Below, piece after piece: positions 25,375 through 50,759 of a stretch of DNA of 64,000 bases. The stretch lies in contig JBPRGF010000033.1 in assembly GCA_051418015.1 (NCBI GenBank), forward strand, positions 52,298 through 116,297. Direction: 5' to 3'. Each line of letters opens with the position of its first letter. The stretch's first letter is position 1. The notes beneath the pieces were generated by a model. That model had not been told where the DNA came from. It saw only the letters and a list, made by a program, of their open reading frames with translations, and did no database searches. The DNA is from Candidatus Nitrospinota bacterium M3_3B_026. Its GTDB lineage: Bacteria; Nitrospinota_A; UBA7883; JBPRGF01. The position numbers and the translations under genes are program-made.

Positions 25375-25395
25375 TGAATTCGATGGGAGGCTCAC

Positions 25396-26448: not shown

Positions 26449-26451
26449 CCT

Positions 26452-27699
26452 ATGACGCGCATACTCGTGGTGGACGATGAGGCCGAGACTCGCTCAAACC
26501 TCAGGAAAATTCTCAACAGGAAGGGTTACTACACCTACGAGGCCGAAAACGGCCGGGATGCGCTGGAGGCCCTTTCCCGCCAGCCGGTGGAGGTCGTCCT
26601 GCTGGACATCAGGATGCCGGAGATGGACGGCAGCGAGGCCTTGAAGAAGATAAAGAAGGAGTACCTGGACACGGAGGTGATAATGGTGACCGCCATTTCG
26701 GATCTGGAGATGGCCGTGGATTTGATGAAAAACGGGGCCTACGGCTACGTCACCAAGCCCGTGGACATGGAAAACATGACCATGGAGATCGAGAAGGCCC
26801 TGGAGCGCCGGCGTCTCTCCATCGAGAACAAAAACTACCATGAGAACCTGGAGAGGATGGTGGAGGAGAAGACCGCCGGGGTCAAGCGCCTCCACGGCCA
26901 GCTGGAGGCGAACTTCTACAACTCCATCCGTGTTTTCGTGGAGCTTCTGGAGCTGCGCGACCCGTTCCTCGGCGGGCACTCGCGGAGGGTGGCGTTTTTC
27001 TCCGTGGAGACGGGCAGGGCCCTCGGTTTGGACAAGGCGCGGCTCAAAGACCTTGAGATAGCCGGCCTGCTCCACGATATCGGCAGGCTGGGAATACCCG
27101 ACGAGACGCTCAGAAAACCCTCCGAGGACCTGACGCCAGGGGAGCAGGACCTGCTGAGAAATCAGACAGTGCTGGCGCAGGAGTCCCTGAAGCCCATCGA
27201 CGAGCTGAAGCGCGCCGGGATCATCATAAGAAGCCACATGGAGCGGGTGGACGGCGCCGGGTATCCGGACGGCCTGAAGGGGGAAGAGATCCCGCTGGAG
27301 TCGCGGATACTGACGGTTGTCAACGCCTTCGACGAGGTGAAGAACAGGCATGGCCATTTCCCCGGCGCCCTGTACGAAGGCAGGACCGAGGAGGAAGCGG
27401 CGATTTTTTACCTGGATGAGCTTTCGGGCAAGAGGTTCGACAAGAAGGCCGTGGCGGCTCTCAAGGACGCGCTGGAGAACCTGATGAGACTCAGGGAAGG
27501 CGTGGCGGCGATCACCCTTGACGAAATGCAGGAGGGAATGACTCTGGCGAAAGACCTTCTCGCGGAGAACGGAAAGCTGCTGCTCGCCAAAGACAACAAG
27601 CTGAGCGCGGCGCTGATCTCGAAACTGCGCTACTATCACAAGATCGTAAGCCCGGTGGCCCGCAAAATATATATTTACTCCAAGGCGCCGCCGGGCTGA
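26452..27699 (+). CDS. Response regulator with divergent HD-GYP domain
   Basis: REC plus LLHDIGRLG, SHMERVDGAGYPDGL and a C-terminal GMTLAKDL...GKLLL tail. Confidence 0.85.
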   Translation: MTRILVVDDEAETRSNLRKILNRKGYYTYEAENGRDALEALSRQPVEVVLLDIRMPEMDGSEALKKIKKEYLDTEVIMVTAISDLEMAVDLMKNGAYGYVTKPVDMENMTMEIEKALERRRLSIENKNYHENLERMVEEKTAGVKRLHGQLEANFYNSIRVFVELLELRDPFLGGHSRRVAFFSVETGRALGLDKARLKDLEIAGLLHDIGRLGIPDETLRKPSEDLTPGEQDLLRNQTVLAQESLKPIDELKRAGIIIRSHMERVDGAGYPDGLKGEEIPLESRILTVVNAFDEVKNRHGHFPGALYEGRTEEEAAIFYLDELSGKRFDKKAVAALKDALENLMRLREGVAAITLDEMQEGMTLAKDLLAENGKLLLAKDNKLSAALISKLRYYHKIVSPVARKIYIYSKAPPG

Positions 27700-27724
27700 G
27701 AAATTTCAGGCGAGGAGGAAAAAA

Positions 27725-28189
27725 GTGTACCGGATAATGGTGGTGGACGATGAGAAGGAGTTTTTGGGCCTGGCGCAAAAGCTTCTGAGCAAGGACTACG
27801 CCGTGGAGGTTTTCGACTCTCCCCTGAAGGCGCTGGAGAGGGCGGATCAGCAGACCTTCGACGCGGTGATATCCGACTACCGGATGCCGGAGATGGACGG
27901 GGTGAAGTTCCTGAAGGTTTTCAAGGAGCGCCAGCCCAACGCGGCGAGGATAATCCTGAGCGCCTACCAGGATAAGGACGAGCTCATCGGCGCCATAAAC
28001 GAGGCCCAGATCTACCGTTTTCTCTCCAAGCCGTGCAACGTCATGGAGCTTGTCATGACCATCGCCCAGGCCATAGCCCACAGGGGGCTGCTGCTGGAGA
28101 GGGAGCAGCTGGCCGAGAAGGTGAAGACCCAGGCCGCCGAGATCGAACAGTTGCGGGCGGAAGTCGAGCGCCTCAGGACGGGAGGCTGA
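27725..28189 (+). CDS. Single-domain response regulator with coiled-coil tail
   Basis: VVDDE, ISDYRMPEMDG, FLSKP; GAGGAGG before GTG. Confidence 0.88.
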   Translation: MYRIMVVDDEKEFLGLAQKLLSKDYAVEVFDSPLKALERADQQTFDAVISDYRMPEMDGVKFLKVFKERQPNAARIILSAYQDKDELIGAINEAQIYRFLSKPCNVMELVMTIAQAIAHRGLLLEREQLAEKVKTQAAEIEQLRAEVERLRTGG

Positions 28190-28381: not shown

Positions 28382-29461
28382 TTGCTGATGCTAGACTTTG
28401 CGCGGGCGCTCCGCCCGGTTCCTTACGCGCTGTTGATAATGTCCGTCCTCGCTGTCCCCGGCGTTTTCGGCCAGGAGAAAAAACCCGCCGGAGAGCAGGC
28501 CGCAAAGGAGCCTATGCCTCCGTTCGCGAAAGTGAACGACGTCGTGTTGACCCTCCAGGACTTCAGGGGCGCGATGATTCAGGCCGTCCGTTCCAAGTAT
28601 TATCATGGCAAGGTCCCCGAGGGAGAGATGGCCGTCCTGCAGAGGGAGGTCGGCCGGAAGATGGTGGACAGGATACTGCTTGTGGAAGAGGCCAGGCGGC
28701 GCGGCCTGGAGCCGGACAGTAAAAAGGTGGACAAGCAGATTACCATGTTCGACGACAAGTACGCCGGCAGCGAGCGCTGGAAGGCCGAACGCGACAGGAT
28801 CATACCGGGTCTCAGAAAACAGATGGAGGAAGACAGCCTGGTGGAGGTCTTGGAAGAGCAGGTGAAAGGCTCGGTGGACCCCTCCGAGGCGCAGGTCCGG
28901 GAATATTACGAGCAGAACCCGGACAAGTTCACCGAGCCCGAGCAGGTGAAAGTCTCCGCCATTCTTTTGAAGGTGGAGCCTTCCTCGCCCAAGGAGGTCT
29001 GGGAGAAGGCGATCGAGGAGGCGAAGGATATAAAGAAGAGGATCGAGGACGGCGGCGATTTCGCCGAATTGGCCAGGATACATTCCGGCGACCCTTCCGC
29101 CGAGAAGGGCGGGGACATGGGCTACCTGCACCGGGGAATGTTGGCCGAAAACGTCCACAAGGCGCTGGACGAGATATCCGCGGGAGACGTGACGGACCCC
29201 GTGGTGATCCTGCAGGGGGTTGGCGTGTTCCGCCTGGACGACCGCAAACAGCCGAAACTCAACGAGTTCAAGGACGTCCGGGAGCGGGCGGAGGCTCTTT
29301 TGAAAAGAGAGCTTGCCGAGAAGGCGTGGGAGGATCTCAAATCGCGGCTGAGGGAGGGGGCCTCGATAGAGATCAACGAGTCATACTATCTTCCGGCGCC
29401 TAAAGACGATGGAGACGAAAAAGAAGAGAAGGGGGGAGCCGAAGATCGCCTTCATGGCTGA
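28382..29461 (+). CDS. Periplasmic parvulin/SurA-type peptidyl-prolyl isomerase
   Basis: Signal peptide, SurA-like N domain, DFAELARIHSGDPSAEKGGDMG. Confidence 0.9.
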   Translation: MLMLDFARALRPVPYALLIMSVLAVPGVFGQEKKPAGEQAAKEPMPPFAKVNDVVLTLQDFRGAMIQAVRSKYYHGKVPEGEMAVLQREVGRKMVDRILLVEEARRRGLEPDSKKVDKQITMFDDKYAGSERWKAERDRIIPGLRKQMEEDSLVEVLEEQVKGSVDPSEAQVREYYEQNPDKFTEPEQVKVSAILLKVEPSSPKEVWEKAIEEAKDIKKRIEDGGDFAELARIHSGDPSAEKGGDMGYLHRGMLAENVHKALDEISAGDVTDPVVILQGVGVFRLDDRKQPKLNEFKDVRERAEALLKRELAEKAWEDLKSRLREGASIEINESYYLPAPKDDGDEKEEKGGAEDRLHG

Positions 29462-29484
29462 CTGAGATGAGGGGCGGAAGATAA

Positions 29485-31635
29485 ATGACGGCGTTTCACC
29501 CTCGTTGCGGATGGAGAGGCGCCGCGGCCGCCGTGGCGATGACGGCGGTTTTTCTTTCACCGTTTTCCTCCCGTCCCGCCGCGGCCGGGGATGAGGAGGA
29601 CGGAGGATCGCCCGGCCGGGGGGCGGGCGTTAGGCTCAGGATCATAAAAGTTATCTCCACGGAGGAGGGGGAAGGGGTGGAAGCGCCCCGTCTTGAACAG
29701 GCGTTCGGAAAAATCCGCCTCACGGCGTTCGATACGATTTCCGAGGAGAGCATGGGAGTCGCCGAAAGGATGCTCGCGCCCGATGAGGAGCTTGCCCCCC
29801 TTGTACGAATCTCGCCGCGGGTGTTGAAGAGGAAAAGGGTTGTGGTGAAGGTGTGGAAGCCATGGGCGCGCGCCCTCATGTACAACCTGACCTGGGGGGG
29901 GTATATCTACGATTTTTACAACAGGCAGTCCTGGGAGGGCGGGGAAGGATTCGAGCGCAACATGCTTGGCCTGCGGCTCAACGTCAGCACCAAGAGCTTC
30001 ATATGGCGGCCTTGGTTCGCCCTCGTGGACGGCGGTGTCGGCCTCTACGCCTCCCGCACGGCGGGCCGGAATATCGCGGGCTATACCTCGAACACCCTCC
30101 TCGGCGATCTGGGGCTCTCCGTTTTCCCTTACAGCAGGTTCCCGTTCCAGGCGAACTACTCCAGGAACAGGACCGACCAGGGCGGCGACCTCAGGGACAC
30201 CCGGACGGAAACCGAGCGCTACTCCGCGCGGCAGAATTACAGGACCAGGGGCGGCACGAATTTCTCCGGGGGCTACCTGCACACCGACGTCAAGACGGAA
30301 AACCTGCAAGCCGGCGGATCCAGTGAAAACAACACGACACGGAGCGTGCTGGACACGTTCGACTTCAGCGCGTCCAAAAGCATCGAGGATCACAGCCTCG
30401 GCCTCAACTCGACCTACAACAAATCGAAACGGGTGGATATCACCAGGGATTACAACACCCTGTCGGTCATCGGCAGGCACAGGTACACCCCGCGGGGGTC
30501 CTTCTCGCTCGAGAACGAGGCGAACTACTACAACTATTACGAAAGAGCCGTGACCGGCTACAAGGCCGGGGCGGAGGAATTCATCTGGGACCAGGACATA
30601 TACCAGGTGACGAGCAACACCTACTGGCGGCCGGAGGACAAGCCGCTGACGGTCAACGCCGGCCTCCGGTACTACGGCACGGACACTGGAAGATCGTCGT
30701 CAAGGACCGGCGGCGCTCCCTCCAACTTCCTCGCCAACGGGAGCGTCTACGCGGGGGCCAACTACTCCGTGAACGAAAACACCAACGTCTACGGAACGGC
30801 CAACTACTCCAAGCCGCTGGAGCCCCCCACTGACTCCTACATAGCGAACCAGTCGTTCGGCGTGACCTATTCGGCCGACCCGGTCGATTTTCTGAAGATG
30901 GACTACACCTGGGGCAACCAGGCCGGGATGAGCCACAGCATGTCGGACCGGAGCAACAGTCTGCGCCTCATGGAGACCATAAGGCACGGCCTCCAGAAGG
31001 GTTTCGATATCGGCGAGTCCTCCTCCATCGACATCAGCGTGGACGAGAGCTTTTCCCTGGACCATTACGCCAACGCGGCTCACGGCTTTTACGAGACCCC
31101 AGAGCCGCGGACGCGGGAGACAATCACTCACGCCGCGTCCATCTCCTGGCTCATGTCGGGGATGTGGGGCAGAGGCGTCGTCAGGCTGTCCGGCTCCGAC
31201 AACAGGAGCAGGGGCGTGATGGAGGGGGGGGAGGTCGTATCACAATTCGTCTATTTCCAGGCGAGCCTGGACAGGCGGCTGAGCAAATATTCGCTGGTCT
31301 ACGTCGACTGGGTCACACAATACTCGGACAGCAACCTGAATGACAACGATTCGATTGGCGGACGGGTAAGATCGCACGGCCTGGCGCAGTACAAAAACAG
31401 CAGGCTCTTTGGCGTGGGAGGGCTTTCTTTTCAATCGTCGTTCAGGGTCGAAGGCAGGTCCTATTTCCCGGGAATTGAAAGCGAAGAGGAATCATCCGAG
31501 ACGATCTCCTGGGTGAACAACCTGGATTACAGCATCGGCAGGCTTCAGACCGCGGCCATGTACAGCATCGTGCAGACGGTCGCCGGGCGGAGGGACATTT
31601 TAATGTTGCGGATTTCGCGCAACTTCGGTAATTAG
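29485..31635 (+). CDS. Outer-membrane beta-barrel protein (cytochrome-cluster porin)
   Basis: Signal peptide; Tyr/Ser/Asn/Thr-rich amphipathic strands; FIWRPWFA and SRFPF; terminal strand MLRISRNF. Confidence 0.75.
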   Translation: MTAFHPRCGWRGAAAAVAMTAVFLSPFSSRPAAAGDEEDGGSPGRGAGVRLRIIKVISTEEGEGVEAPRLEQAFGKIRLTAFDTISEESMGVAERMLAPDEELAPLVRISPRVLKRKRVVVKVWKPWARALMYNLTWGGYIYDFYNRQSWEGGEGFERNMLGLRLNVSTKSFIWRPWFALVDGGVGLYASRTAGRNIAGYTSNTLLGDLGLSVFPYSRFPFQANYSRNRTDQGGDLRDTRTETERYSARQNYRTRGGTNFSGGYLHTDVKTENLQAGGSSENNTTRSVLDTFDFSASKSIEDHSLGLNSTYNKSKRVDITRDYNTLSVIGRHRYTPRGSFSLENEANYYNYYERAVTGYKAGAEEFIWDQDIYQVTSNTYWRPEDKPLTVNAGLRYYGTDTGRSSSRTGGAPSNFLANGSVYAGANYSVNENTNVYGTANYSKPLEPPTDSYIANQSFGVTYSADPVDFLKMDYTWGNQAGMSHSMSDRSNSLRLMETIRHGLQKGFDIGESSSIDISVDESFSLDHYANAAHGFYETPEPRTRETITHAASISWLMSGMWGRGVVRLSGSDNRSRGVMEGGEVVSQFVYFQASLDRRLSKYSLVYVDWVTQYSDSNLNDNDSIGGRVRSHGLAQYKNSRLFGVGGLSFQSSFRVEGRSYFPGIESEEESSETISWVNNLDYSIGRLQTAAMYSIVQTVAGRRDILMLRISRNFGN

Positions 31636-31804
31636 GACTATGCTCGGGACGCTTTTTTCGGAAAGCGAGGGGCCCGGGCTTTTAAAAAGGGGGGCGGCGC
31701 AAGCCGCGGCTGGTTGATTTTGTGGGAAAATCCGCATGGTGTCGGCGCTTTGCCGTATCGCGCTGTTTGTCGTATCAACGGACAATCGATAATGGGGAGA
31801 GTCT

Positions 31805-32260
31805 ATGTTAAGGAAAAAATGTAAAGAAGTGTTCAGGAGAGCCTTCCTTCCATTGCTGGCGGCGGCCCTGGTGGCGGGAATGCTCCTGCCGGGGCAGGCC
31901 CGGGCGGAGTACGCGGACGTGGTGATCAACAACTATTCGGACGAGCAGGGGATGCGTCCGGCCGTGTTCCCGCACTGGTTCCATCGCATCAGGTTCCGGT
32001 GCAAGGTCTGCCACGCCGACCTGGGGTTCCAGTTCAAGGCTGGCGGAAACAAGATAACGATGGCGAAGATCATCGAGGGCGAGTTCTGCGGCGCCTGCCA
32101 CAACGGCGAGGTGGCCTGGTCCCCGCAGAACTGCGACCTGTGCCATTCCGGCGTGCCGGGAACTCCCACACAGGTCCACGGAAGCACGGCACAGACGCTG
32201 GTGACGCCGGTGGGCATCCAGAAGTTCACCATCGAGGAAAAGGACACCTTTGAAAAATAA
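31805..32260 (+). CDS. Triheme c7-like cytochrome (type A)
   Basis: Signal peptide; VFPHWFH, CKVCH, CGACH, CDLCH. Confidence 0.9.
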   Translation: MLRKKCKEVFRRAFLPLLAAALVAGMLLPGQARAEYADVVINNYSDEQGMRPAVFPHWFHRIRFRCKVCHADLGFQFKAGGNKITMAKIIEGEFCGACHNGEVAWSPQNCDLCHSGVPGTPTQVHGSTAQTLVTPVGIQKFTIEEKDTFEK

Positions 32261-32287
32261 GAGAATATAGAAAAAAGAGGAGAGGTC

Positions 32288-32914
32288 ATGAATCGCAAGC
32301 TTGTAATCACTCCTTTAGTGATAGTGGCCGCGCTGTGTATCGCGCTGGAGCCGGCCCGCGCCCAGGAGCCGGCGAATCCCCCGCAGGGTGGAGGAAACAA
32401 GGCGGGCATACAGTTCAACAGGTTGCTCAAAAAACCCAAGGTCTACAACCCCCCTCCAGCCGAAGACGGGGCCCACGACCCCCAGAACGAGGGGACGTAC
32501 ATGCTCCAGCCCCCCATGGATGTGTTCAAGCACATGCCCAAAGCCCAGTCCGGCAACAGGGTGGACTGGGTGAAAGCCCTGAACGACGGCGTCATAAACC
32601 CGCGCTGGGACAGGCTCGACCCCGCGGCCGAGCCGGACGTGTTCGAGTTCGACGTGCTCCGGGAAGTGCGCGGCTCCATGCCCAACGTCCTCTTCCCCCA
32701 CGACAGGCACACCCAGTGGCTGGCCTGCGAGAACTGCCACGACGACATCTTCATCCCCCAGGTCGGAGCCAACCAGATCAGCATGGCGCTTATCCTGATG
32801 GGGCAGAAATGCGGCGTGTGTCATGGCAAGGTGGCGTTCCCGCCGACCCAGTGCAGAAAATGCCATAGCCAGAAAAAGGACGCTATGGTGAAAAAGAAAC
32901 CCAGACAGCAGTGA
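32288..32914 (+). CDS. Triheme c7-like cytochrome (type B)
   Basis: Signal peptide; HDP..., GNRVDWVKAL, FPHDRH, CENCH, CGVCH, CRKCH. Confidence 0.9.
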   Translation: MNRKLVITPLVIVAALCIALEPARAQEPANPPQGGGNKAGIQFNRLLKKPKVYNPPPAEDGAHDPQNEGTYMLQPPMDVFKHMPKAQSGNRVDWVKALNDGVINPRWDRLDPAAEPDVFEFDVLREVRGSMPNVLFPHDRHTQWLACENCHDDIFIPQVGANQISMALILMGQKCGVCHGKVAFPPTQCRKCHSQKKDAMVKKKPRQQ

Positions 32915-32927
32915 GAGAACCAGCCAG

Positions 32928-34115
32928 ATGAGAAGTTACTTCATTAAAGCGGCGGCTGGGATGCTGGCGATCGGCCTTGCGGCCGGTTGCCAGTCCCCAG
33001 GCCCGCCCAAAAAAGAAACGCTCAAAAAACCCTCGGCTGAGCAGGCGGCTGAGGGGGAAGAGGAGAAACCCGCTGAAGAGGCCCCCTCTCCGGGTCCGGT
33101 AGTCTCCGAGCCCAAGGCGGAGGAGCCGCCAGCCGCGCCGCCGCCCGAGCCCGCGGTAAAAGCGGAAAAGCCGGAGGCCGCGGAGCCGGAGCGCCAGGCC
33201 GCGGAGCCTGAGAAAGCGCCGGAGGAGAAGGAGGCGCCAGAGCCTCCCGTTGCCGCCGAGGCCCCTCCGGAGCCTGCGCCCAAGAAAGAGGCGGCGACCA
33301 TCCGCGGCGGTAAACCGAAGCTCTCCAAAGATAAGCTGGAAATGCGTGTCAGCTACCTGGAAAGCCTGGTTTACAAATCCTCTTCCGCCAAAAAAGTCGA
33401 AGAGAGCGGCAACGAAGAGGCCATGGCCGCCCTTGCCCGCTCCAGGGAGCTTTATAAGCACGCCCGGGCCGCCCTGGAAAAGGACGACCTGGAAGGCTCC
33501 GATGACGCCATGAGGGAGTCCATGAGACTCGTCGGCGTGGCGTCGCGCATGGCGACAAGCCCCGAAGAGAAAAGCGCCCGCGAGCGCGAGAAATATCTCC
33601 AGACGAAAAAGAGCGTGGAGAGCCTGCTTGACGCCATCGACAGAGTCGTCAAGGAGAACGGCCCGGAAAAAGAGGAGCTTGGCGTCGACCCGGCCCCCAT
33701 CCACAAGCTCTATGACGAGGCCGAGGCGCAGGCCTCCGAGAAAAAGTACAAGGAGGCCAACGTCAAGATTGACGAGGCATACGCCCTGGCCTCCTCGGCC
33801 GTCACGAAGCTCCGGGACAAGGAGACGATCCTGCTGACGCTCGAGTTCGAGACGCCGGAGGATGAATATAAATACGTCCTCAAGCGAAACGAAAGCTACG
33901 AATCGCTCATCTCTATCATGATAGAGGAGAAAAAACCGGGCGAGGGGCAGCTTGAAAGGATCAAGGGGTTTGTGGCTGAAGGCCGGTCCATACTTGAAAA
34001 AGCCGAAAAACTCGCCTCCCAGGGAGACTTCGAACAGGCCATCCAGTTCGCCGACGATGCCACGCGCGAGCTTGCCAAGGCTCTGCGGACGCTTGGGCTC
34101 ATGGTGTACGATTGA
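32928..34115 (+). CDS. Alpha-helical lipoprotein with Pro/Glu/Ala-rich linker
   Basis: Lipobox LAAGC; ~100-aa P/E/A/K tract; helical domain with LEFETPEDEYKY. Confidence 0.8.
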   Translation: MRSYFIKAAAGMLAIGLAAGCQSPGPPKKETLKKPSAEQAAEGEEEKPAEEAPSPGPVVSEPKAEEPPAAPPPEPAVKAEKPEAAEPERQAAEPEKAPEEKEAPEPPVAAEAPPEPAPKKEAATIRGGKPKLSKDKLEMRVSYLESLVYKSSSAKKVEESGNEEAMAALARSRELYKHARAALEKDDLEGSDDAMRESMRLVGVASRMATSPEEKSAREREKYLQTKKSVESLLDAIDRVVKENGPEKEELGVDPAPIHKLYDEAEAQASEKKYKEANVKIDEAYALASSAVTKLRDKETILLTLEFETPEDEYKYVLKRNESYESLISIMIEEKKPGEGQLERIKGFVAEGRSILEKAEKLASQGDFEQAIQFADDATRELAKALRTLGLMVYD

Positions 34116-34137
34116 CGGAAAGTTTTTTCTTCGGAGC

Positions 34138-35028
34138 ATGAAAGAGGCGATCGCGCCGGTCGTGGCCGTTTTGCTTCTCGTCTTCGCCTCCCCGGCTGGA
34201 GCGCAGGGGAGGGGGGCGGAGTTCAAGGCGGGGCGGATTGACAGGAGGCTCCAGTCCGTGACAACGCTGGTCGAGACGTCCTCCCTGGCGCTGCGGATCA
34301 GGTCCAGCGGGTCCGTGGAGGCGGAAAACGTCCGCCTGGAGGCCGAAGCCGTACTCGAACAGGCCGAACAGGCCGCCGCCCGCGGCGACGATGACGAGGC
34401 GGGAAGGCTGCTCATCGAAGCCCAGAAAAAGGTCTATCAGGCCGCCAGTCTCCTGGGCGGCGGCCCCGGCGCCGGGGAGAAAAAACGCAGGGATTTCAAA
34501 CACAGGCTCAAGAGCGTGAAGGCCCTGCTGGAGGCCAACAGGCGCGTCGGGGGCGAAATCGAGGACACCGGGGAAAAAGAAAGACGCCGGGAACTGGCCG
34601 AAAGGGTCGCCAGCCTGCTTGAGGAGGCGATGGCCCTGTATGACGCGGGCGAGGTGGGCAAGGGCCGGGAAAAGCTGGACGAGGCCTACGCGACGGCCAC
34701 CAGCTCCCTCCGGAAGATGCGCCATGGCATGACGCGGGTGCGCGACCTTAAGTTCGAAACGAAGGAGGAGGAGTTCGAGTTCGTAAAACGCTACAACGAC
34801 GACTACCTGAACCTCGCGGACAAGTTCGTGAGCGATTACCTCAAGAAAACCGAAGACACGGCCCGGGCGGAAAGGATGAAAAAATACTTCAAAAGGGGCA
34901 AGGAGTTGCGAGTCGAAGCGGACGGGCTGGCATCGGCCGGTGATTTCGAAAAGGGCATAGAAGCCCTGGAGCAGTCCACAAGGCAGATCAAGCAGGCCAT
35001 AAGGGCTACCGGGTTCATGATACCCTGA
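34138..35028 (+). CDS. Exported alpha-helical protein, paralog of the preceding lipoprotein domain
   Basis: Start MKEAIAPVV after GGAG; signal peptide; LKFETKEEEFEF and LASAGDFEKGI match upstream LEFETPEDEYKY and LASQGDFEQAI. Confidence 0.8.
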   Translation: MKEAIAPVVAVLLLVFASPAGAQGRGAEFKAGRIDRRLQSVTTLVETSSLALRIRSSGSVEAENVRLEAEAVLEQAEQAAARGDDDEAGRLLIEAQKKVYQAASLLGGGPGAGEKKRRDFKHRLKSVKALLEANRRVGGEIEDTGEKERRRELAERVASLLEEAMALYDAGEVGKGREKLDEAYATATSSLRKMRHGMTRVRDLKFETKEEEFEFVKRYNDDYLNLADKFVSDYLKKTEDTARAERMKKYFKRGKELRVEADGLASAGDFEKGIEALEQSTRQIKQAIRATGFMIP

Positions 35029-35172
35029 AACGTGGGAAGGGAATTTCGCCCCGCTCGAATGAAGGCGCCGCATGTCCGCTTCGGGCAAGACGGGATCGAC
35101 GCCGTTCCGGCCGGCGGGCGGAAACTCGTTGTCACATAAGGCATGAACATTGACTTTTCGGGGCAGGTCCAC

Positions 35173-35745
35173 ATGATTTTCGCCGTATCCGGGGGTAAAA
35201 GACTGATTTTGCTCATCGCGGCCACCGGCCTTTTTTTCGCGGCTCTGGCCGGAGCCGCGCGGGGCGACGAGCGGAAATGGGAAAAGATCGAGGGCGACGG
35301 GTTGCACGACCCTGAAGGCCCGGCCATACACACCCTGCAGGATCCCGGGGAAGCCCTCTCCGCCCTGCCGCCGGACCCGGGAAACGCCGGGAACAAGGTC
35401 AGCTGGCCGAAGGCGCTGGAAAATGGCTTTATAAACCCCAGGACCAGCTTTGACAACGAGAAGGAGATGCAGGTTCTGGACATGGACATCCTGTTCAAGG
35501 AGACGCGGGAGATGCCCATGGTCCTGTTCCCCCACGTAAAACACACCGTGTGGCTGGATTGCTCTAACTGCCACGACAAGATATTCAAAGCCAAGGCGGG
35601 CGCCACGCCGGTGAACATGTTCACCATCCTGATGGGGGAGCATTGCGGGAGATGCCACGGCGCCGTCGCCTTTCCATTGACGGAATGCTTGCGCTGCCAC
35701 AGCGTGGAGAGGGAAGGCGCCAGTGTCAAGCACAGGATGGAGTGA
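35173..35745 (+). CDS. Triheme c7-like cytochrome (type B')
   Basis: Signal peptide; DGLHDP, GNKVSWPKAL, FPHVKH, CSNCH, CGRCH, CLRCH. Confidence 0.9.
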   Translation: MIFAVSGGKRLILLIAATGLFFAALAGAARGDERKWEKIEGDGLHDPEGPAIHTLQDPGEALSALPPDPGNAGNKVSWPKALENGFINPRTSFDNEKEMQVLDMDILFKETREMPMVLFPHVKHTVWLDCSNCHDKIFKAKAGATPVNMFTILMGEHCGRCHGAVAFPLTECLRCHSVEREGASVKHRME

Positions 35746-36118
35746 CCGCCGGAACGCGGCGGCCGCAGCGGTGTTCGCCCTGGTTCTCTTCGCCGCGCCC
35801 GCGCGGGCGGAATACGGCGACGTCATAATCAACAACAAGGCCGAGGAATACGGGATGCGCCCGGTGATATTCCCCCATTGGTTCCATCGCATCCGGTTCA
35901 GGTGCAGGGTCTGCCACACGGACGTCGGGTTCGAAATGCGCGCGGGGTCCAACGACATAACCATGGGCAAGATCATAGACAGGCAGTTCTGCGGCGCCTG
36001 CCACAACGGTGAGATCGCCTGGGGACCGGAAAACTGCGACATGTGCCACTCCGGCAAAGCCGGGCTCAAGACCGGAGTCAGGGGAGGGCATCAGACCGGG
36101 GGGCCGGGGAGGTGGTGA
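35723..36118 (+). CDS. Triheme c7-like cytochrome (type A')
   Basis: AEYGDVIIN...FPHWFHRIRFRCRVCH, CGACH, CDMCH; start approximate. Confidence 0.88.
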   Translation: MSSTGWSDRRNAAAAAVFALVLFAAPARAEYGDVIINNKAEEYGMRPVIFPHWFHRIRFRCRVCHTDVGFEMRAGSNDITMGKIIDRQFCGACHNGEIAWGPENCDMCHSGKAGLKTGVRGGHQTGGPGRW

Positions 36119-37074
36119 CGGTCCGTTTTTTGCTTGTGCTGGTCGGCGCCGTGGCCGCCCTGTCCTGCTCCACCATTGAAAAAAGCCCCTCCGGCCCTGG
36201 CGCCGGGGAAAAGACCGGCCGGTCCTTCCTCGAGCCGTGGGGGGAGATATCCCGTCAGGTGGCGTCGATGGAAAACGGCGGGGAGAGAGATACGGCGCCG
36301 CCCCTGCGGCCGTTCCTTGCGCCGAGCGCCGTGGCGGCCAGAGATGAATATGTTTATATAGCCGACTCCGGCGCCGGATGCGTCTTCAGGTACAACAGCT
36401 ACAGCATGGCCCTCGCAAGGCTGGTGAGGCCGCCGGCTGATTTCCTTACCGATATAAAAGTCCTGGCCGACCACTCGTTCGTCGTGACCGATCCGTTCAA
36501 CAGCCGCGTGCTGCGCTTCGGTCATGACGGGAGCCTGAGGTGGGTTTTCAAGAACCGAACCTACCTGAGCCACCCCACCTCCGTCGCTGTGGACGAGAAA
36601 AGGGGCATGGTCTACGCCGCCGACGGGGCGGGCGGCTACATCGTGGCGTTCAACACCGCGGGCCAGGTGGTCAACGTCATGGCGGACTGGGTGTCCGGAA
36701 AGGAAGGCCCCATCGACATAGCCTCCATCGCCATGGGCCCCGACGGGCTGTACGTGGCCGACAGGGTCTCCCGCGCCGTCCATGTCTTCAACGGCGACGG
36801 GGAGCGGCTCTATTTTTTCGGAGACAAGGACCTTGGGGAGCCCCTGGCCCTCGACGTTGACGAAGACGGCAGGGTCTACGTCGCCGACGGGGCGGACAGC
36901 TCCATCAAGGTCTTCTCCGGCGGACGGCTGGTCTGGAGCGCGGGAAAAGAGGATGGCGGATGGGTCAGGTTCCAGGGTCTTTCGGACCTGGCCGTGGAGG
37001 ACGGGCGCCTTTACGCCTCGGACAACGTGTCGGGAAAGGTTTACATTTTCCTCGTCATGCCGGAGAATTTGTAA
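36115..37074 (+). CDS. NHL-repeat beta-propeller lipoprotein
   Basis: GTG overlapping upstream TGA; lipobox ALSC; repeated VYIADS/VYAADG/LYVADR blades. Confidence 0.85.
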   Translation: MTVRFLLVLVGAVAALSCSTIEKSPSGPGAGEKTGRSFLEPWGEISRQVASMENGGERDTAPPLRPFLAPSAVAARDEYVYIADSGAGCVFRYNSYSMALARLVRPPADFLTDIKVLADHSFVVTDPFNSRVLRFGHDGSLRWVFKNRTYLSHPTSVAVDEKRGMVYAADGAGGYIVAFNTAGQVVNVMADWVSGKEGPIDIASIAMGPDGLYVADRVSRAVHVFNGDGERLYFFGDKDLGEPLALDVDEDGRVYVADGADSSIKVFSGGRLVWSAGKEDGGWVRFQGLSDLAVEDGRLYASDNVSGKVYIFLVMPENL

Positions 37075-37119
37075 TGACGAATGTCCCGCTTTTCTATTTT
37101 CGCGCCGCTTGATTTGAAA

Positions 37120-38196
37120 ATGACGAACAGGGGAATTTTCAGGGCGTCCACGGCCTGGGCCGTTCTCGCCGTTTTCCTGGCCCTCGGCGGCTGCGCCGCG
37201 CCGAAATATTCCATGACGCTTGACGTCTACGGAATCAACGGCGATGTGGAGAAGGTCTGGCCGCCCGCGCCGGAGGTGCCCCGCTACATGTACATAGGGG
37301 AGCTTGTGGGTGAGCCTAACTTCGCGAAAGATTCGGGAGGCGGCGGATTCAGGAAGGCGCTGGAGGTCATCGCGGGAGTGATCGCGGGCAAGAGCGGGCC
37401 GGAGCTTTTGCAACGCCCCCAGGCCGGCGTGGTGGACGCTGAGGGAAACATTTACATCACCGACGTCAGCCGCCAGGCGGTCTGCGTGTTCCACCAGGAG
37501 AAGGGCTTTTTGGTCTGGGATATGATCAGCAGGATGGGCAGATTCGTATCCCCCATAGGCGTCGCCATCGGCAGGGACGGCGAGATTCTAGTGACGGACT
37601 CCGAGCTCGGCGTCGTCGTCCGGCTCGACAGGGAGGGCAAGCCGCTGGGGATATTCGGGCGCAAGGAGTTGACCCGTCCCACGGGGATAGTGGCCGATCC
37701 CGAGAAGGGCTTTGTTTACGTCGCCGACACACACGCCCACGACATCAAGGTTTTCGATTATGATGGCGGACTCGTGGGGACCATCGGAAAACGCGGCGAC
37801 GAGAAGGGGAGCCTCAACTTTCCCATTCATCTCGCCTTCTCCAAGGGGAGGATATACGTCACTGACACCCTCAACGCGCGCGTGCAGGTGTTCAGCGAGG
37901 ACGGGGAGTTCATAACGACTTTCGGCAGCCGGGGTCTTTACAAGGGGCAGTTCACCCGCCCGAAGGGCATAGCCCTGGACTCCGACGGCAACATCTACGT
38001 TGTGGAGTCATACTACGACCACCTGCTGATATATGACAACCAGGGCCGGTTCCTCCTGCCGATGGGAGGGGCCGGGTCCGATCCGGGCAAGTTCTACCTG
38101 CCGGCGGGGGTCTGGGTGGACGAGCATGACAGGGTATTCGTGGCGGACATGTTCAACCGGCGTGTCGTTGTTTTCCAGTACCTTGGCGGCTCCTGA
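37120..38196 (+). CDS. NHL-repeat six-bladed beta-propeller lipoprotein
   Basis: Lipobox LGGC; VWPPAPEVPRY; RPTGI, FPIHLA, RPKGIALD, LPAGVWVD. Confidence 0.88.
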   Translation: MTNRGIFRASTAWAVLAVFLALGGCAAPKYSMTLDVYGINGDVEKVWPPAPEVPRYMYIGELVGEPNFAKDSGGGGFRKALEVIAGVIAGKSGPELLQRPQAGVVDAEGNIYITDVSRQAVCVFHQEKGFLVWDMISRMGRFVSPIGVAIGRDGEILVTDSELGVVVRLDREGKPLGIFGRKELTRPTGIVADPEKGFVYVADTHAHDIKVFDYDGGLVGTIGKRGDEKGSLNFPIHLAFSKGRIYVTDTLNARVQVFSEDGEFITTFGSRGLYKGQFTRPKGIALDSDGNIYVVESYYDHLLIYDNQGRFLLPMGGAGSDPGKFYLPAGVWVDEHDRVFVADMFNRRVVVFQYLGGS

Positions 38197-38384
38197 CCCG
38201 CCACTCCCGGCCCGCTCCACGAGGGGCTTCCCGGCATTCGCCAAAGCGGTGATAGATGATGACGGCGAGCCCTCTGGCATGGTAAAATTTTATTGTTGAA
38301 AACGGCGGATTCCAGCGTCTTGCGCGCCGCCCGCCGTTCCGCGGTTCGATCGCCGCTTGTCATCGTTTCAGGGGATTATTGGGG

Positions 38385-40913: not shown

Positions 40914-40975
40914 TGGGGCGTTGCGAGTCTCGGATTGCGGGTTAAAGATGCTGGAGACCGGAGGCCTATCATTTT

Positions 40976-41019
40976 CTCCCCCTGCCGGAGGGACAGTGGC
41001 GCGAAGCGCCGAGGGGGAG
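40976..41019. repeat. CTCCCCCT...AGGGGGAG palindromic repeat unit
   Basis: CTCCCCCTGCCGGAGGGACAGTGGCGCGAAGCGCCGAGGGGGAG, with nested hairpin GGCGC-GAA-GCGCC. Confidence 0.6.
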
Positions 41020-41023
41020 GGAG

Positions 41024-41109
41024 CAATGTCATTCTGAGCCGCAGGCGAAGAATCCCGCCGGGCTTGGCGAGGGCGACGGGATGCTTCGCTGTTGCTCAGC
41101 ATGACATTG
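41024..41109. repeat. 86-nt palindromic REP-like element (left copy)
   Basis: CAATGTCATTCTGAGC...GCGAAGAATCCC...GGGATGCTTCGC...GCTCAGCATGACATTG folds as one long hairpin. Confidence 0.85.
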
Positions 41110-41119
41110 GCGGGGCGTG

Positions 41120-41419
41120 ATGGCAAGAACGAGAAGGTATTATGTCTACATCATGACCAACAAACGCAATACCGTTCTTTATACGGGTGTGACCTGAAAC
41201 ATCCAGAGAAGGATGCGGGAGCACAAAGAAAAAATCATAAGCGGTTTTACTTCCAAGTATAACGCAATCAAGCTTGTTTATTACGAGGTTTTCAACAGTG
41301 TCCGCGAGGCGTTGTCCAGGGAGAAGCAGATAAAAGGATGGCTGCGCGAGAAAAAGATCGTGTTAATAGAGTCGGTGAACCCTGAATGGAAGGACTTGAG
41401 CGAGGATATTATTTGGTGA
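41120..41419 (+). pseudogene. Small GIY-YIG nuclease with in-frame TGA at codon 26
   Basis: MARTRRYYVYIMTNKRNTVLYTGVT*NIQRRMREHK...GFTSKYN..KLVYYE...REKQIKGW...NPEWKDL; TGA at 41195-41197; markedly lower GC than neighbours. Confidence 0.85.
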
Positions 41420-41428
41420 CGCCGACTT

Positions 41429-41618
41429 TGTCATTCTGGGGCCGGAGGCCGAAGAATCCCGACCGGGCATGGCAAAGGCGGACGGGATGCTTCGCTTCGC
41501 TCAGCATGACATCGGGGGTCCGGGGGTATGCTTCGCGGAGTTTATCCTGAGCCACCGCGAAGGGCCCGGCATGACATCGGATGCTTGGACGAGACTCTTA
41601 GCTTCGCTCATGATGACA
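41429..41618. repeat. Right copy of the REP-like element plus two degenerate half copies
   Basis: 41429-41511 TGTCATTCTGGGG...CGAAGAATCCC...GGGATGCTTCGCTTCGCTCAGCATGACA; further ATGCTTCGC...CATGACA (about 41528-41576) and GCTTCGCTCATGATGACA (to 41618). Confidence 0.8.
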
Positions 41619-41649
41619 ACATATCGCGCATGAAACTTCCCGCCGTACA

Positions 41650-42648
41650 ATGACGATCATCGAAGCGCTGGCTTCGCTGAGGTTTTCCCTCGTTCTCATA
41701 GCGCTGCTCTCGGCGGGCGCCATGCTGGCCTCGTATGACGTCTACCACGCGGGCTGGCTGGTGGGGCCGCCGATGGCGCTGCTGGCCGTGAACCTCGCCG
41801 CCGCGATCGCCGCGAACCCCGTCTTCCGCCGCCAGACGCCGCTGCTCATCTTCCATCTGGCGCTTTTGTTCGTGGTGGTCTTCGCCGCCCTCGGCAGGCT
41901 CTGCTACCTGAAAGGCCACGTGGAGGTGGCCGAGGGGACGCCGATGAACCCCGCCCTTGCGGGATATGAAAACGGCCCCTTGCACTTTTATAAACTGGAT
42001 GAAGTAAAGTTCGTAAACGCCGGATTTAAAATAGAATACGGGCCGGATCGCGAGAAGGGCAAGACGCTCAACAGGGTGGTCTACCAAGGGCCGGGGGGCG
42101 AGCGCCGGGAAGCGCTGATCGGCGACCAGGTTCCGCTGGAGATCGGCGGGTACAAGTTCTACACAACGTCGAACAAGGGTTTCGCGCCGGTCTTCACGTG
42201 GGCGCCCGCCGACGGCTCGCCCCCCGCGACGGGGTCGGTCCACCTGCCGAGCTATCCGAGATATGAGAAACGCCAGGCGATACCCTGGGAGATACCGGGG
42301 GCGGGGTTGAAGGTTTTCACGATGCTTGTCGTGGACGAGCCTGTCATCGCCTCCGGGAAGGTTTCGAGGTTCCGTCCACCTGAAAAGCATCACGTCATCG
42401 CGCGCGTGGGGGATGAGACGAAACGGATGAAGCCCGGCGACAGGCTGGAGCTTCCCGGGGGGACTTTGGTCTACCGCGAGCTTCGGACGTGGATGGGGTA
42501 TGGTATATACAGCGACTGGACGCTGCCGTGGCTTTTCGCCGCGTGCGCCGTGGCGGCGGTGAGCCTCGGGTGGTATTTCTGGGACAAGTTCGCGGCCTCG
42601 CCGTGGATGAGGGAGGAGGGCGCCCGTCTGTCCGGCGGCGCCTCGTGA
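41650..42648 (+). CDS. ccsB: Cytochrome c biogenesis protein CcsB/ResB-like
   Basis: LASLRF N-terminus, 3 TM with FHLALL His, periplasmic domain, C-terminal TM; adjacent to ccsA. Confidence 0.75.
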   Translation: MTIIEALASLRFSLVLIALLSAGAMLASYDVYHAGWLVGPPMALLAVNLAAAIAANPVFRRQTPLLIFHLALLFVVVFAALGRLCYLKGHVEVAEGTPMNPALAGYENGPLHFYKLDEVKFVNAGFKIEYGPDREKGKTLNRVVYQGPGGERREALIGDQVPLEIGGYKFYTTSNKGFAPVFTWAPADGSPPATGSVHLPSYPRYEKRQAIPWEIPGAGLKVFTMLVVDEPVIASGKVSRFRPPEKHHVIARVGDETKRMKPGDRLELPGGTLVYRELRTWMGYGIYSDWTLPWLFAACAVAAVSLGWYFWDKFAASPWMREEGARLSGGAS

Positions 42649-42675
42649 TAAAGTGGAACACGCGCGGGACTCTCA

Positions 42676-42769
42676 AATCCTCCCCCTTGAAGGGGGAGGA
42701 TTAAGGTGGGGGTGTTAAAAGAATCTTTATACACCCTCCCCTGTATCCCCTCCCGTCAAGGGAGGGGAT
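42676..42769. repeat. Composite double-hairpin intergenic repeat
   Basis: AATCCTCCCCCTT-G-AAGGGGGAGGATT, then GGTGGGGGTG...CACCCTCCCC, then ATCCCCTCCC-GTCAA-GGGAGGGGAT. Confidence 0.8.
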
Positions 42770-42842
42770 GGCTCCAGAATATTCCCCCGAGGGAGGGGCG
42801 GTGTTTTGGATAAAAAAGCCAAGGCAAGAACAGAGAAAAAGG

Positions 42843-43649
42843 TTGGAGACGGAGCTTAAAACCCTTTGGGCGGCGCTTGCCGTTTACGTGATCGCCGGCT
42901 GCCTGGCGGTTATCGGGACGATTTTGCGCAGGCGCCCGGAGAAGGTCCTGCTGGGCCTGATGGCGGCGGGGCTCGGCCTGCACGCGCTGGCCATCGGATT
43001 GCGCTGGGGGCGTCTTGGCTACGGGCCTTTCATCACGATGTTCGACATACTGTCGAGCAATATCTTCAGCCTGCTTTTCATCTTCACTTTGGCGTACTGG
43101 CGGTTCCGCCCCATAAGGCCCGTGGCGGCGGTCGTCCTGCCGGTGATGTTTCTGATGATGGGGTGGCTCATCGTCGTCGACCCCGCCGAGGGGCATTACC
43201 CCCCCACCTATGACACGATATGGCTTTACATTCACATCGGTTTCGGCAAGATTTTTATGGGGGCGGCGCTGGTGGCCCTGGGCATGGCGATAGTCATCCT
43301 CGTCCGCTGGGCGGGGGTTTTCGGGTTCGCCTCCCTGCCGGACAGCGAGAGCCTCGACGAGCTGGCCTACCGGTTCATGGCGATAGGGTTCATCTTCGAC
43401 GCGCTGATGCTGGTGGCCGGGGCTGTGTGGGCCCAGGACGCCTGGGGGCGCTACTGGGCGTGGGACCCGCTTGAGACATGGTCGCTTATCACGTGGCTGC
43501 TGCTGGCCTTCGCCCTGCACACCAGGATCACCCTCAAGACGGCGCCGCCCGTGGGGGCGGTGATGGTCATCGTTGTCTTCGCCGTGGCGTTCCTGACCTT
43601 TTTCGGCGTTCCCTTCATCTCCGAGGCGCCGCACAAGGGGGTGGTGTGA
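42843..43649 (+). CDS. ccsA: Cytochrome c biogenesis protein CcsA (System II heme lyase)
   Basis: WLYIHI; GAVWAQDAWGRYWAWDPLETW (WWD motif); C-terminal His; TTG start chosen downstream of the repeat. Confidence 0.9.
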   Translation: METELKTLWAALAVYVIAGCLAVIGTILRRRPEKVLLGLMAAGLGLHALAIGLRWGRLGYGPFITMFDILSSNIFSLLFIFTLAYWRFRPIRPVAAVVLPVMFLMMGWLIVVDPAEGHYPPTYDTIWLYIHIGFGKIFMGAALVALGMAIVILVRWAGVFGFASLPDSESLDELAYRFMAIGFIFDALMLVAGAVWAQDAWGRYWAWDPLETWSLITWLLLAFALHTRITLKTAPPVGAVMVIVVFAVAFLTFFGVPFISEAPHKGVV

Positions 43650-44233
43650 CGAAGCGGAAAAGGGATCGGCGCGCGCTGGCGCTGGGGCTTTCGCTCGCGG
43701 GCGTCCTGGCGCTGGGGACAGCGATACACTTCGCGCCGGATATCGACTTTCTCGCCTATTTATCCCTCGCGGACGAGGAGGCGGAGAAGGAAAAAAAGCT
43801 GAAGGAGCACGTCGACTCCGCCGTCGCGGCGGAGGTAGACAAAAGGTTCCGGCAGGCCGTCGCGATGCTCCACGCCAAAAAATACGAGTACGCCGCGTCG
43901 GCCCTGCATCGCGTGCTCGAGCTTCGGCCCAGGATGCCCGAGGCGCACGTCAACATGGGCTTCGCCATGCTCGGGATGGACGACTACAAGGCCGCGAGGG
44001 ACTTTTTCGAGGGGGCGATAGATATCCACCCGTCCCAGGAGAACGCCTATTACGGCCTGTCGCTTGCCCTGCGGGAGCTTGGCGATCTCGAGGGCGCCGT
44101 CGGGGCGATGCGGACCTATGTTCATCTTGTGAAACCTGATAGCCCCTACCTTGAAAAAGCCCGGGCCAGCCTGGAGGAGATGGAAAACGAGCTGACCGAA
44201 AAACGGGGCGAACGATCCGTTACGATCGAATAG
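43646..44233 (+). CDS. Membrane-anchored TPR protein
   Basis: GTGA overlap with ccsA; TM then TPR motifs PEAHVNMGFAM and ENAYYGLSLAL. Confidence 0.8.
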   Translation: MTKRKRDRRALALGLSLAGVLALGTAIHFAPDIDFLAYLSLADEEAEKEKKLKEHVDSAVAAEVDKRFRQAVAMLHAKKYEYAASALHRVLELRPRMPEAHVNMGFAMLGMDDYKAARDFFEGAIDIHPSQENAYYGLSLALRELGDLEGAVGAMRTYVHLVKPDSPYLEKARASLEEMENELTEKRGERSVTIE

Positions 44234-47375: not shown

Positions 47376-47648
47376 CCGCCGCCGGAAAAAATCGCCATCT
47401 TCTCCAGCCGCCTGCCTCAAAAGTTATAAAAGCCCCCGCTTCCCGGCGTTGCCTTGAGCTTGTCCGGAGCCCCGAAAACGTGATACTCTATTTATATTGC
47501 CTGGAGAGGAGAGTGTAAGCCTTTTCCAACCAATGAGATAGATGCTAAAATAAGACTGTGGCCGCGTTCCGCGTCATAGCGTGGTTCGAGGTTTCCGTCA
47601 CAACCAGATGTTGTATCCGTGTGTTTTTTTGGATGGCTTGCGTGATAT

Positions 47649-49328: not shown

Positions 49329-49329
49329 G

Positions 49330-50712: not shown

Positions 50713-50731
50713 GAAAAGCCCGGTATGGCGC

Positions 50732-50759
50732 TTGACAACGCGGATAACGGTACTATAAA
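50732..50759 (+). promoter_or_regulatory. Putative sigma70 promoter
   Basis: TTGACA-N16-TATAAA upstream of the Sel1 gene. Confidence 0.55.

Follow-up and report, generated by a model that had tools for sequence, protein, structure and literature searches.

Does a bacterium labeled Nitrospinota carry the undecaheme electron transfer (uet) system described in Pseudomonadota, and would its products form a route for electrons across the outer membrane? The question is raised by a gene cluster on the forward strand (positions 28382-44233) of a 64,000-nt stretch of contig JBPRGF010000033.1 from Candidatus Nitrospinota bacterium M3_3B_026, which is called the window here. An earlier reading of the same DNA (the original prediction) had named uet as the match for these genes, and the match is borne out by homology and kept gene order, against a locus of Ca. 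Tenderia sp. and dozens of others. Judged on those two grounds, the cluster is a true orthologue of uet: it comprises uetB to uetJ, ccsBA, and a TPR gene. We regard a trans-outer-membrane electron conduit as its rather probable function.

The uet cluster is known from Ca. Tenderia electrophaga and the Tenderiales, and has been reported in Gallionella and the Leptothrix group too. As listed in the accessible text of the Tenderiales preprint (bioRxiv 10.1101/2022.05.06.490989), it consists of a tetraheme (UetA), a peptidyl-prolyl isomerase (PPIase; UetB), a barrel with 28 predicted strands (UetC), three trihemes (UetD, UetE, and UetG), a large protein annotated as cupredoxin-containing (UetF), two NHL proteins (UetH and UetI), and an undecaheme (UetJ), with ccsA, ccsB, nrfG (TPR), and batDBA downstream. 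The window cluster is made up of 14 closely spaced, co-oriented open reading frames (ORFs), all of them intact (Table 1). The parts list, co-orientation, and 23 CxxCH motifs claimed in the original prediction all hold when checked with ORF calls, Pfam, NCBIfam, and a script count over the cluster proteins (3+3+3+3+11 = 23); the same count found no CxxCK or longer-spaced variants of the heme motif in these proteins. We refer to the four trihemes as T1-T4, to the two helical proteins as H1 and H2, and to the two NHL propellers as N1 and N2. Twelve genes (PPIase to undecaheme) encode a signal peptide or a lipobox, as read by eye from the N-termini, and these sequences place the probable true starts of H2 at 34138, of N1 at ~36112, and of the TPR protein at 43646. 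No Pfam or NCBIfam family was assigned to the 716-aa protein, H1, or H2.

Related loci were collected by a one-genome-per-species scan with UetJ, in which 579 of 596 matched stretches are relatives; the best 80 were kept (L001-L080). Our reference for per-gene identities is the locus from a Ca. Tenderia sp. metagenome-assembled genome (MAG; L025), in which tblastn recovers 11 of the 14 window proteins in identical order: PPIase (39% identity), barrel (24%), T1 (75%), T2 (58%), H1 (31%), T3 (38%), N1 (35%), N2 (49%), undecaheme (45%), CcsB (38%), and CcsA (45%). Its ORF map also shows a gene with four CxxCH motifs in front of the cluster and a 227-aa ORF behind CcsA. No counterpart of T4 was found there by tblastn with T4 as the query; T4 homologues with 58-75% identity occur in many Pseudomonadota loci.

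For counts across loci we required a UetJ identity of at least 39%, which leaves 33 loci whose upstream flank spans at least 9.5 kb and 44 whose downstream flank spans at least 3.6 kb; the counts are lower bounds, as tblastn can miss divergent genes. UetA, directly before the PPIase, is present in 27 of the 33 upstream-complete loci, the PPIase in 27, the barrel in 25, at least three trihemes in 26 (four in 17), at least one helical gene in 25 (two in 10, with H2 orthologues in the same position), and at least one NHL gene in 30 (at least two in 20). Among the 44 downstream-complete loci, CcsB is found in 32, CcsA in 33, and the TPR gene, searched for with the window query, in 19. The cluster order recurs in about 25-30 of the 33 loci, and in three Pseudomonadota classes as well as the window lineage the barrel, propellers, PPIase, and cytochromes stay together in a strictly kept order. 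The synteny check proposed with the original prediction thus found its gene order again in related loci, 11 genes of it in the Ca. Tenderia sp. locus alone. The prediction's "expanded gene set" fares differently: four trihemes and two helical genes are not special to this host, because many Pseudomonadota share the layout, including loci from Ideonella, Arenicellales, Noviherbaspirillum, and Piscinibacter.

Table 1. Features of the uet-like cluster in the window, and UetA-like genes on other contigs of the same genome.
Feature	Position	Strand	Evidence
uetB-like periplasmic PPIase, SurA/PpiD-type, parvulin domain, signal peptide	28382..29461	+	Pfam Rotamase 7.4e-16 + SurA_N_3
uetC-like outer-membrane beta-barrel, 716 aa (predicted)	29485..31635	+	AlphaFold2: 28 strands; Pfam/NCBIfam: none
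T1, small c7-type triheme, uetD-like	31805..32260	+	3 CxxCH; PF14522 + TIGR04257
T2, longer c7-type triheme, uetE-like	32288..32914	+	3 CxxCH; PF14522
H1, helical lipoprotein, lipobox LAAGC, Pro/Glu/Ala-rich linker	32928..34115	+	related to UetF C-terminal part
H2, helical exported protein, H1 paralogue	34138..35028	+	no family
T3, longer c7-type triheme, uetG-like	35143..35745	+	3 CxxCH; PF14522
T4, small c7-type triheme, fourth copy	35723..36118	+	3 CxxCH; PF14522
N1, NHL beta-propeller lipoprotein, uetH-like, lipobox ALSC	36043..37074	+	Pfam NHL 1.5e-13
N2, NHL six-bladed beta-propeller lipoprotein, uetI-like, lipobox LGGC	37081..38196	+	Pfam NHL 4.3e-30 + DUF5128
uetJ-like undecaheme cytochrome, 844 aa	38379..40913	+	11 CxxCH; Pfam Paired_CXXCH_1
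Inserted mobile element, uetJ-ccsB interval	41024..41620		GIY-YIG ORF + hairpin (repetitive extragenic palindromic [REP]-like) repeats
CcsB (ResB-like), System II cytochrome c maturation	41650..42648	+	Pfam ResB 2.5e-9
CcsA (ResC-type heme handling/lyase subunit)	42768..43649	+	PF01578 (Cytochrom_C_asm) 8.9e-29; TIGR03144 136 bits, below cut-off
TPR protein, one N-terminal membrane helix, NrfG/NlpI-like position	43646..44233 (ORF from 43478)	+	Pfam TPR families
uetA orthologue of the host, 322 aa	C9:65795-66763		4 CxxCH
UetA-like genes, examples	C31:200761-202894; C31:36185-38384; C33:120464-121438

The original prediction had staked itself beforehand on the 716-aa protein modeling as a beta-barrel, and it does so. 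An AlphaFold2 model built from a 24-sequence alignment (the window protein and 23 homologues from related loci) has a mean predicted local distance difference test score (pLDDT) of 79.7 and a predicted TM-score (pTM) of 0.65, with 28 strands across residues 135-715 and a disordered N-terminal region of ~130 residues. The top match in a Foldseek search of the PDB is MtrB from the Shewanella Mtr complex (6r2q_B, E 6.7e-10), at a TM-score (TMq) of 0.38 and 11% sequence identity, and TonB-dependent receptors rank close behind it. Because the TM-score is so low and the TonB-dependent receptors score nearly alike, the fold search shows a large barrel, not a cytochrome porin. Pfam and NCBIfam gave no match to a plug domain or TonB box family on the barrel. 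The UetC-type barrel is single-copy in the host genome, and a protein search with the barrel alignment passed 3 among 8000 candidates.

The genes that follow the barrel are largely paralogues of each other: T1 and T4 are 68% identical, T2 and T3 46%, and H1 and H2 29% (E 2e-18). Across 31805-36118 these pairs stand in mirror order (T1 T2 H1 / H2 T3 T4), a symmetry that suggests two related triheme-triheme-helical sub-assemblies. The Tenderia sp. locus has a single helical gene and three trihemes. T1 matches PDB entry 3ov0, a periplasmic 12-heme protein, with E 4.2e-42; the entry is named GSU1996 in the Tenderiales preprint (bioRxiv 10.1101/2022.05.06.490989). We label H1 and H2 as helical, YfdX-like at best, because their matches are all weak: PF10938 (YfdX) in 7 of 26 family members (best E 7.6e-5), TPR_2 in 11 of 26 (Pfam), and TPR or designed-helical entries for the family profile in the PDB (best E 1.9e-4). 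Atlas neighbors of H2 carry the automatic name YfdX. N1 and N2, which come after the T1-T4 block, are 25% identical.

UetJ looks like a pure electron carrier, as it has 11 CxxCH motifs, no CxxCK, and 15 further histidines that are invariant in 20 sequences, enough by count for bis-histidine ligation of all its hemes. Its family is very large: of 8000 candidates scored, 6743 pass E 1e-5. The two closest relatives show 83% and 62% identity, followed at ~50-55% by many Gamma- and Betaproteobacteria, and homologues are carried by the cultured Sedimenticola hydrogenitrophicus, Inmirania thermothiophila, Halomonas alkalisoli, Thalassotalea aquiviva, and Motiliproteus sp. When a 20-sequence UetJ profile was searched against the PDB, the only informative matches were 7tfs_A (E 4.9e-33) and 9yuq_N (E 1.7e-24), both covering the first ~210 positions of the profile. 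The former is the OmcE filament of G. sulfurreducens (PMC12954529) and the latter the bundled OmcE of Desulfuromonas soudanensis (PMC13712944). Residues 30-238 of the window UetJ align with 7tfs_A (E 4.8e-23), the fourth CxxCH follows the aligned region in an OmcE-like context ("C..CHDK"), and four OmcE-aligned histidines outside the CxxCH motifs (H40, H66, H181, and H235) are invariant in 20 UetJ sequences. On these alignments, UetJ is an OmcE-like tetraheme module (~residues 30-290) fused to a seven-heme extension without a solved relative. Its AlphaFold2 model, from the 20-sequence alignment, has a mean pLDDT of 34.6, too low for a fold search.

The gene for UetA is absent from the window cluster, where response regulators occupy the site upstream of the PPIase. 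Its orthologue lies on another contig (C9), where an NHL gene and an ORF of 126 aa come before it; compared with UetA from the Pseudomonadota loci L025, L004, and L005, it shows 47-53% identity. The host UetA aligns with OmcE end to end (9YUQ, E 2e-26; 7TFS, E 5.7e-24), from an N-terminal "TKH(N/D)L" to a C-terminal "C..CH.K", so the genome has the OmcE-homologous tetraheme of OmcE-type clusters, with four CxxCH motifs and four further conserved histidines, and its gene lies outside the cluster. The genome encodes 14 UetA/OmcE-like cytochromes with 3 to 5 CxxCH motifs, on contigs C1, C9, C24, C26, C28, C31, C32, and C33; the paralogues are 28-41% identical to the UetA orthologue, and there are two tandem pairs, one of them beside an extra NHL gene. 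Several of these genes lie at contig ends, as if repeats had broken the assembly. The nanowire analogy of the original prediction gains a basis in homology from UetA and from the N-terminal ~290 residues of UetJ, both homologous to OmcE; the link thus runs to OmcE and not, as was suggested, to OmcS.

The prediction also described the cluster as a self-contained pathway with its own heme lyase. The lyase is there: the CcsB of the cluster is the sole match to ResB (PF05140), and so the only ResB-type System II gene, in the host genome. PF01578 matches four genes, namely the CcsA of the cluster, a CcmF/NrfE-like gene (406 bits), a CcmC-like gene (140 bits), and a CcsA-like gene on contig C18; the last three fall below the NCBIfam cut-offs, yet have those families as their best matches. 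With the only ResB in the cluster and the CcmF-like and CcmC-like genes elsewhere, the cluster therefore supplies a System II of its own, alongside a set of genes resembling System I. System II next to System I is also noted for Tenderiales in the preprint cited above (bioRxiv 10.1101/2022.05.06.490989). The cluster is not fully self-contained, because uetA sits on another contig.

Between uetJ and ccsB lies a gap of 736 bp, which holds a GIY-YIG-type ORF of 99 codons (41120-41419) whose codon 26 is an in-frame TGA. Hairpin repeats of ~85 nt, with the core GTCATTCTGAG...CTCAGCATGAC, flank this ORF. We read this segment as an insertion because in a relative (L088) ccsB begins only ~60 bp after uetJ.

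The host genome (2.85 Mb in 33 contigs, 61.6% guanine-plus-cytosine content [GC], 97% completeness, 0.2% contamination) is alone in its family within the genome collection. Four sequencing runs from two studies contain the DNA, one of these runs perhaps being its source, and the run search listed no RNA data set that contains it. Among the best 120 matches of its RpoB, all named ones with at least 66% identity are Nitrospinae/Nitrospinota, apart from one "hydrothermal vent metagenome," and some Tectomicrobia appear from 65% identity down. Since RpoB groups with Nitrospinae/Nitrospinota, the original prediction was right to suppose a non-proteobacterial host. UetJ (E 1e-80 or better) is present in 5 of the 33 species genomes of the host's phylum-level group, the window's included; the four relatives have UetJ identities of 56-61% and the same gene order where contigs allow.

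A UetJ tree of 70 sequences, drawn from the best-matching 80-locus subset (quick search, LG+G4), places the window in a clade of 52 with 100% support in the Shimodaira-Hasegawa-like approximate likelihood ratio test (SH-aLRT). Tenderia is in this clade, which consists of 47 Pseudomonadota, the window and three relatives, and one short contig labeled Nitrospirae. A single origin in the host lineage, nested among proteobacterial sequences, is compatible with the tree and is not rejected, because constraining the five non-proteobacterial sequences to one group costs no likelihood (approximately unbiased test, p-AU 0.83). The tree fits lateral exchange of the whole cluster. Any such transfer would not be recent, because the GC of the cluster (0.60-0.63) equals that of the genome (0.616); a recent foreign origin was rejected on this composition. 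One 4966-bp contig labeled Nitrospirae bacterium (L008) has a UetJ that groups with the window's relatives, not with the Nitrospirota clade, and may be mis-binned or mislabeled.

How the parts would work together as a conduit can be sketched as follows. All twelve structural proteins would be exported unfolded, via their signal peptides or lipoboxes; CcsBA and its TPR partner would attach the 23 hemes, and the SurA-like PPIase would aid folding of the barrel and/or the cytochromes. The outer membrane would house the 28-strand barrel, scaffolded by the two NHL propeller lipoproteins. The four c7 trihemes, possibly organized by H1 and H2, would ferry electrons over the periplasm, and the undecaheme, whose N-terminal module is homologous to the extracellular OmcE, would take them through or past the barrel to the outside. 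Localization, protein contacts, direction of flow, secretion, folding, and the extracellular position of the undecaheme are all inferred here.

As for direction, we lean slightly toward uptake, with Fe(II), minerals, or a cathode-like material as the electron donor, because the genome encodes a cbb3 oxidase (CcoN above cut-off) and a NiFe hydrogenase (748 bits). Uptake is also the direction proposed for Tenderia and Gallionella, and the part of Uet in it is a prediction (for Tenderia, in the accessible text of bioRxiv 10.1101/2022.05.06.490989). Electrons may instead be exported, with Mn(III)/Fe(III) as the acceptor, which is the role suggested for occ in Ca. Dechloromonas occultata. With a Type II dimethyl sulfoxide (DMSO)-reductase/NxrA model as the query, the best score in the genome is 110 bits against a cut-off of 985, and thus no sign of a canonical nitrite oxidoreductase was seen with that query. 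The genome also has 31 crude ORFs with at least three CxxCH motifs, including a 959-aa ORF with 31 (C29:171980-174860) and a 325-aa ORF with 10 (C18:32124-33102), of MtrA/MtoA-like size and near the second CcsA-like gene on that contig.

Several points weigh against a conduit. In the accessible literature on Uet its role is a prediction in every organism. The cluster encodes no MtrA-like decaheme to fill the barrel, and the likeness of that barrel to MtrB is weak (TM-score 0.38), with TonB-dependent receptors nearly equal. The position of UetJ outside the cell is presumed, and its AlphaFold2 model is unusable at a pLDDT of 34.6. Furthermore, uetA is missing from the cluster, though 27 of the 33 upstream-complete loci carry it just before the PPIase, and the insertion between uetJ and ccsBA could disturb co-transcription.

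The homology to OmcE raises a different possibility, which overlaps with the conduit and mainly adds a filament to it: Uet clusters may be OmcE-type filament systems, in which the barrel and NHL proteins export and mount a UetA polymer and UetJ is the anchor or adaptor that caps or seeds it. The N-terminal module of UetJ would dock via the OmcE subunit interface, with its seven-heme tail wired through the barrel to the trihemes. We hold this reading tentatively, as possible and still unlikely. The end-to-end alignment of the host UetA with both OmcE structures speaks for it, as do the OmcE-aligned stretch of UetJ, with its fourth CxxCH in an OmcE-like context, and the four invariant histidines there. 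So does a single UetC-type barrel in a genome with 14 UetA-like genes. According to the available text of PMC13712944, minimal omcE clusters occur in five phyla and always comprise OmcE, two multiheme cytochromes, two beta-propeller lipoproteins, a large barrel, and an adjacent resB/ccsB, and a cytochrome resembling OmcE is sought as the "anchor" or "tip"; this parts list and the sought cytochrome agree with the filament reading. The same text describes OmcE-like tetrahemes as widely distributed and does not expect all of them to polymerize, which counts against it. A UetA polymer is moreover a proposal; uetA is unlinked in this genome; and the likeness of the barrel and NHL proteins to those of the Geobacter omcE cluster is one of fold class only.

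A smaller version of the cluster is found in a distant clade of loci (L054-L080) from Nitrospirota, Campylobacterota, Aquificota, Bacteroidota, and others, whose 10-11-heme cytochromes are 27-35% identical. The core there reads UetA-like, NHL, UetA-like, PPIase, NHL, undecaheme, and no barrel or trihemes were detected with the window queries. That this core recurs in such distant Nitrospirota, Campylobacterota, and Aquificota loci is another point in favor of a filament. Were the filament reading true, a single barrel machine would serve 14 dispersed OmcE-like cytochromes in this genome, and cathode- and iron-oxidizing bacteria, along with a lineage labeled Nitrospinota, would use cytochrome nanowires for electron uptake. 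The sequence tie between UetA, UetJ, and the solved OmcE filament gives the idea a concrete form, open to testing in those UetJ carriers that are in culture. PMC13712944 has zero mentions of Uet or Tenderia, and no OmcE-Tenderia link was found in the examined part of the literature that names both.

It is improbable that no electrons cross the outer membrane. In that case the proteins would store or relay electrons within the periplasm or form a complex with a catalytic role, and the barrel and propellers would have another purpose, such as solute uptake or adhesion. The match of the c7 triheme domains to periplasmic 3OV0, the place of TonB-dependent transporters close behind MtrB in the fold search, and the use of NHL propellers as generic interaction or enzyme folds are what such a reading would draw on. 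It would have to explain why the genes keep a strict joint order across three Pseudomonadota classes and the window lineage, why the barrel matches no plug domain or TonB box family, and why the N-terminus of UetJ is homologous to an extracellular cytochrome; a catalytic role also finds no heme motif to suit it, as all are CxxCH. Very unlikely is a decaying lateral acquisition, non-functional in this host: the patchy distribution of UetJ in the phylum-level group, the GIY-YIG/hairpin insertion between uetJ and ccsB, and the displaced uetA fit it, but all 14 reading frames are intact, the cluster matches the genome in GC, the insertion falls between genes, the host retains a well-conserved uetA orthologue next to an NHL gene on another contig, and relatives hold the same order at 50-72% identity.

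Signaling genes flank the cluster on both sides. Upstream (21058-28189), a 1438-aa PAS/GAF histidine kinase is followed by three response-regulator genes, two with HD-GYP-type HD_5 domains and one a lone receiver. The downstream side (44631-50712) encodes a multi-PAS protein of 914 aa, a histidine kinase, and a sigma-54 activator. After the activator, the forward strand (50791-56778) encodes a Sel1 protein, two Reg_prop propellers (419 and 428 aa), a TPR/Cds6_C protein, a 195-aa protein without a family, and a 269-aa cytochrome with seven CxxCH motifs (55969-56778), which together may be a second module. The reverse strand encodes SelB, the selenocysteine-specific elongation factor (13160-15082), and hence the host probably makes selenoproteins.

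Nitrospinota are best known for nitrite oxidation. We found no publication on Uet in this phylum, in a search that had the supplementary tables of the Tenderiales and Gallionellaceae papers outside its scope; Cyc2 and multiheme proteins, not Uet, are reported in Nitrospinota MAGs in the accessible literature. Uet is one of the few candidate routes, as yet predicted, for lithoautotrophs to take up electrons from solids, and an orthologous copy outside the Pseudomonadota widens the range of organisms that may exchange electrons with minerals. It also suggests lateral spread of the whole 14-gene unit.

Among known systems the closest is uet itself, with which the window shares gene families and order, at 24-75% identity to Ca. 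Tenderia sp., and a UetJ in one strongly supported clade. The window cluster has no uetA at its 5' end, the orthologue being on another contig, and it has a fourth triheme. The 514-aa protein at the UetF position of the Tenderia sp. locus consists of an N-terminal At5g54830-like domain and a C-terminal helical part; the window has the helical part only, doubled as H1 and H2, with 31% identity between H1 and its Tenderia sp. counterpart, and lacks the At5g54830-like domain. No cluster protein has a Pfam match to a cupredoxin family, and no Bat/BatD or vWA domain was found among the 13 ORFs scanned downstream (44631-62642), where batABD would be looked for. Finally, the host is labeled Nitrospinota, whereas uet has been described in Pseudomonadota.

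The occ cluster (occA-S) of Ca. Dechloromonas occultata, as described in the accessible text of bioRxiv 10.1101/695007, has 19 genes, among them 10 cytochromes, an extracellular undecaheme of ~922 aa (OccP), and six-NHL proteins; it is widespread in Betaproteobacteria and is expressed during Mn(III) reduction, a direction opposite to the one proposed for Tenderia. Rhodocyclaceae loci among our relatives (L016, L021, L026, and L042) share the gene order of the window, and occ and Uet, compared by their descriptions only, are probably of the same kind. With MtrCAB, MtoAB, and other porin-cytochrome complexes the window shares the logic of a large outer-membrane barrel combined with multiheme cytochromes, and MtrB is the top fold match. 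However, there is no MtrA/MtoA-type decaheme in the cluster, the cytochromes are unrelated, and the barrel has 28 strands in contrast to 26 in the MtrB type.

The osc operon of G. sulfurreducens, the companion of OmcS, includes a folding factor (OscH), secretion proteins (OscE, F, and G), and extra cytochromes, according to the available part of PMC13194489. Its likeness to the window, drawn from that summary only, is one of functional parts; the homology of the window runs to OmcE, and no OmcS-like hexaheme was seen, with no search aimed at one. The omcE cluster comes closer, sharing an OmcE-homologous tetraheme, two propeller lipoproteins, a large barrel, multihemes, and resB/ccsB-type genes, with barrel and propellers alike in fold class only. 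Unlike it, the window fuses an OmcE-like module to a seven-heme extension, has its stand-alone OmcE-like gene unlinked, and includes a PPIase and c7 trihemes inside the cluster. Conserved clusters with OmcE-like cytochromes are also reported from Acidobacteriota and Verrucomicrobiota in the accessible text of a 2026 preprint. Compared with all of these, the kind of system seen here is already known and widespread and is not new; what the window adds is one more lineage with a Uet orthologue that is both close (~50% identity) and complete, a uetA that is unlinked and has many paralogues, and a clear domain structure for UetJ.

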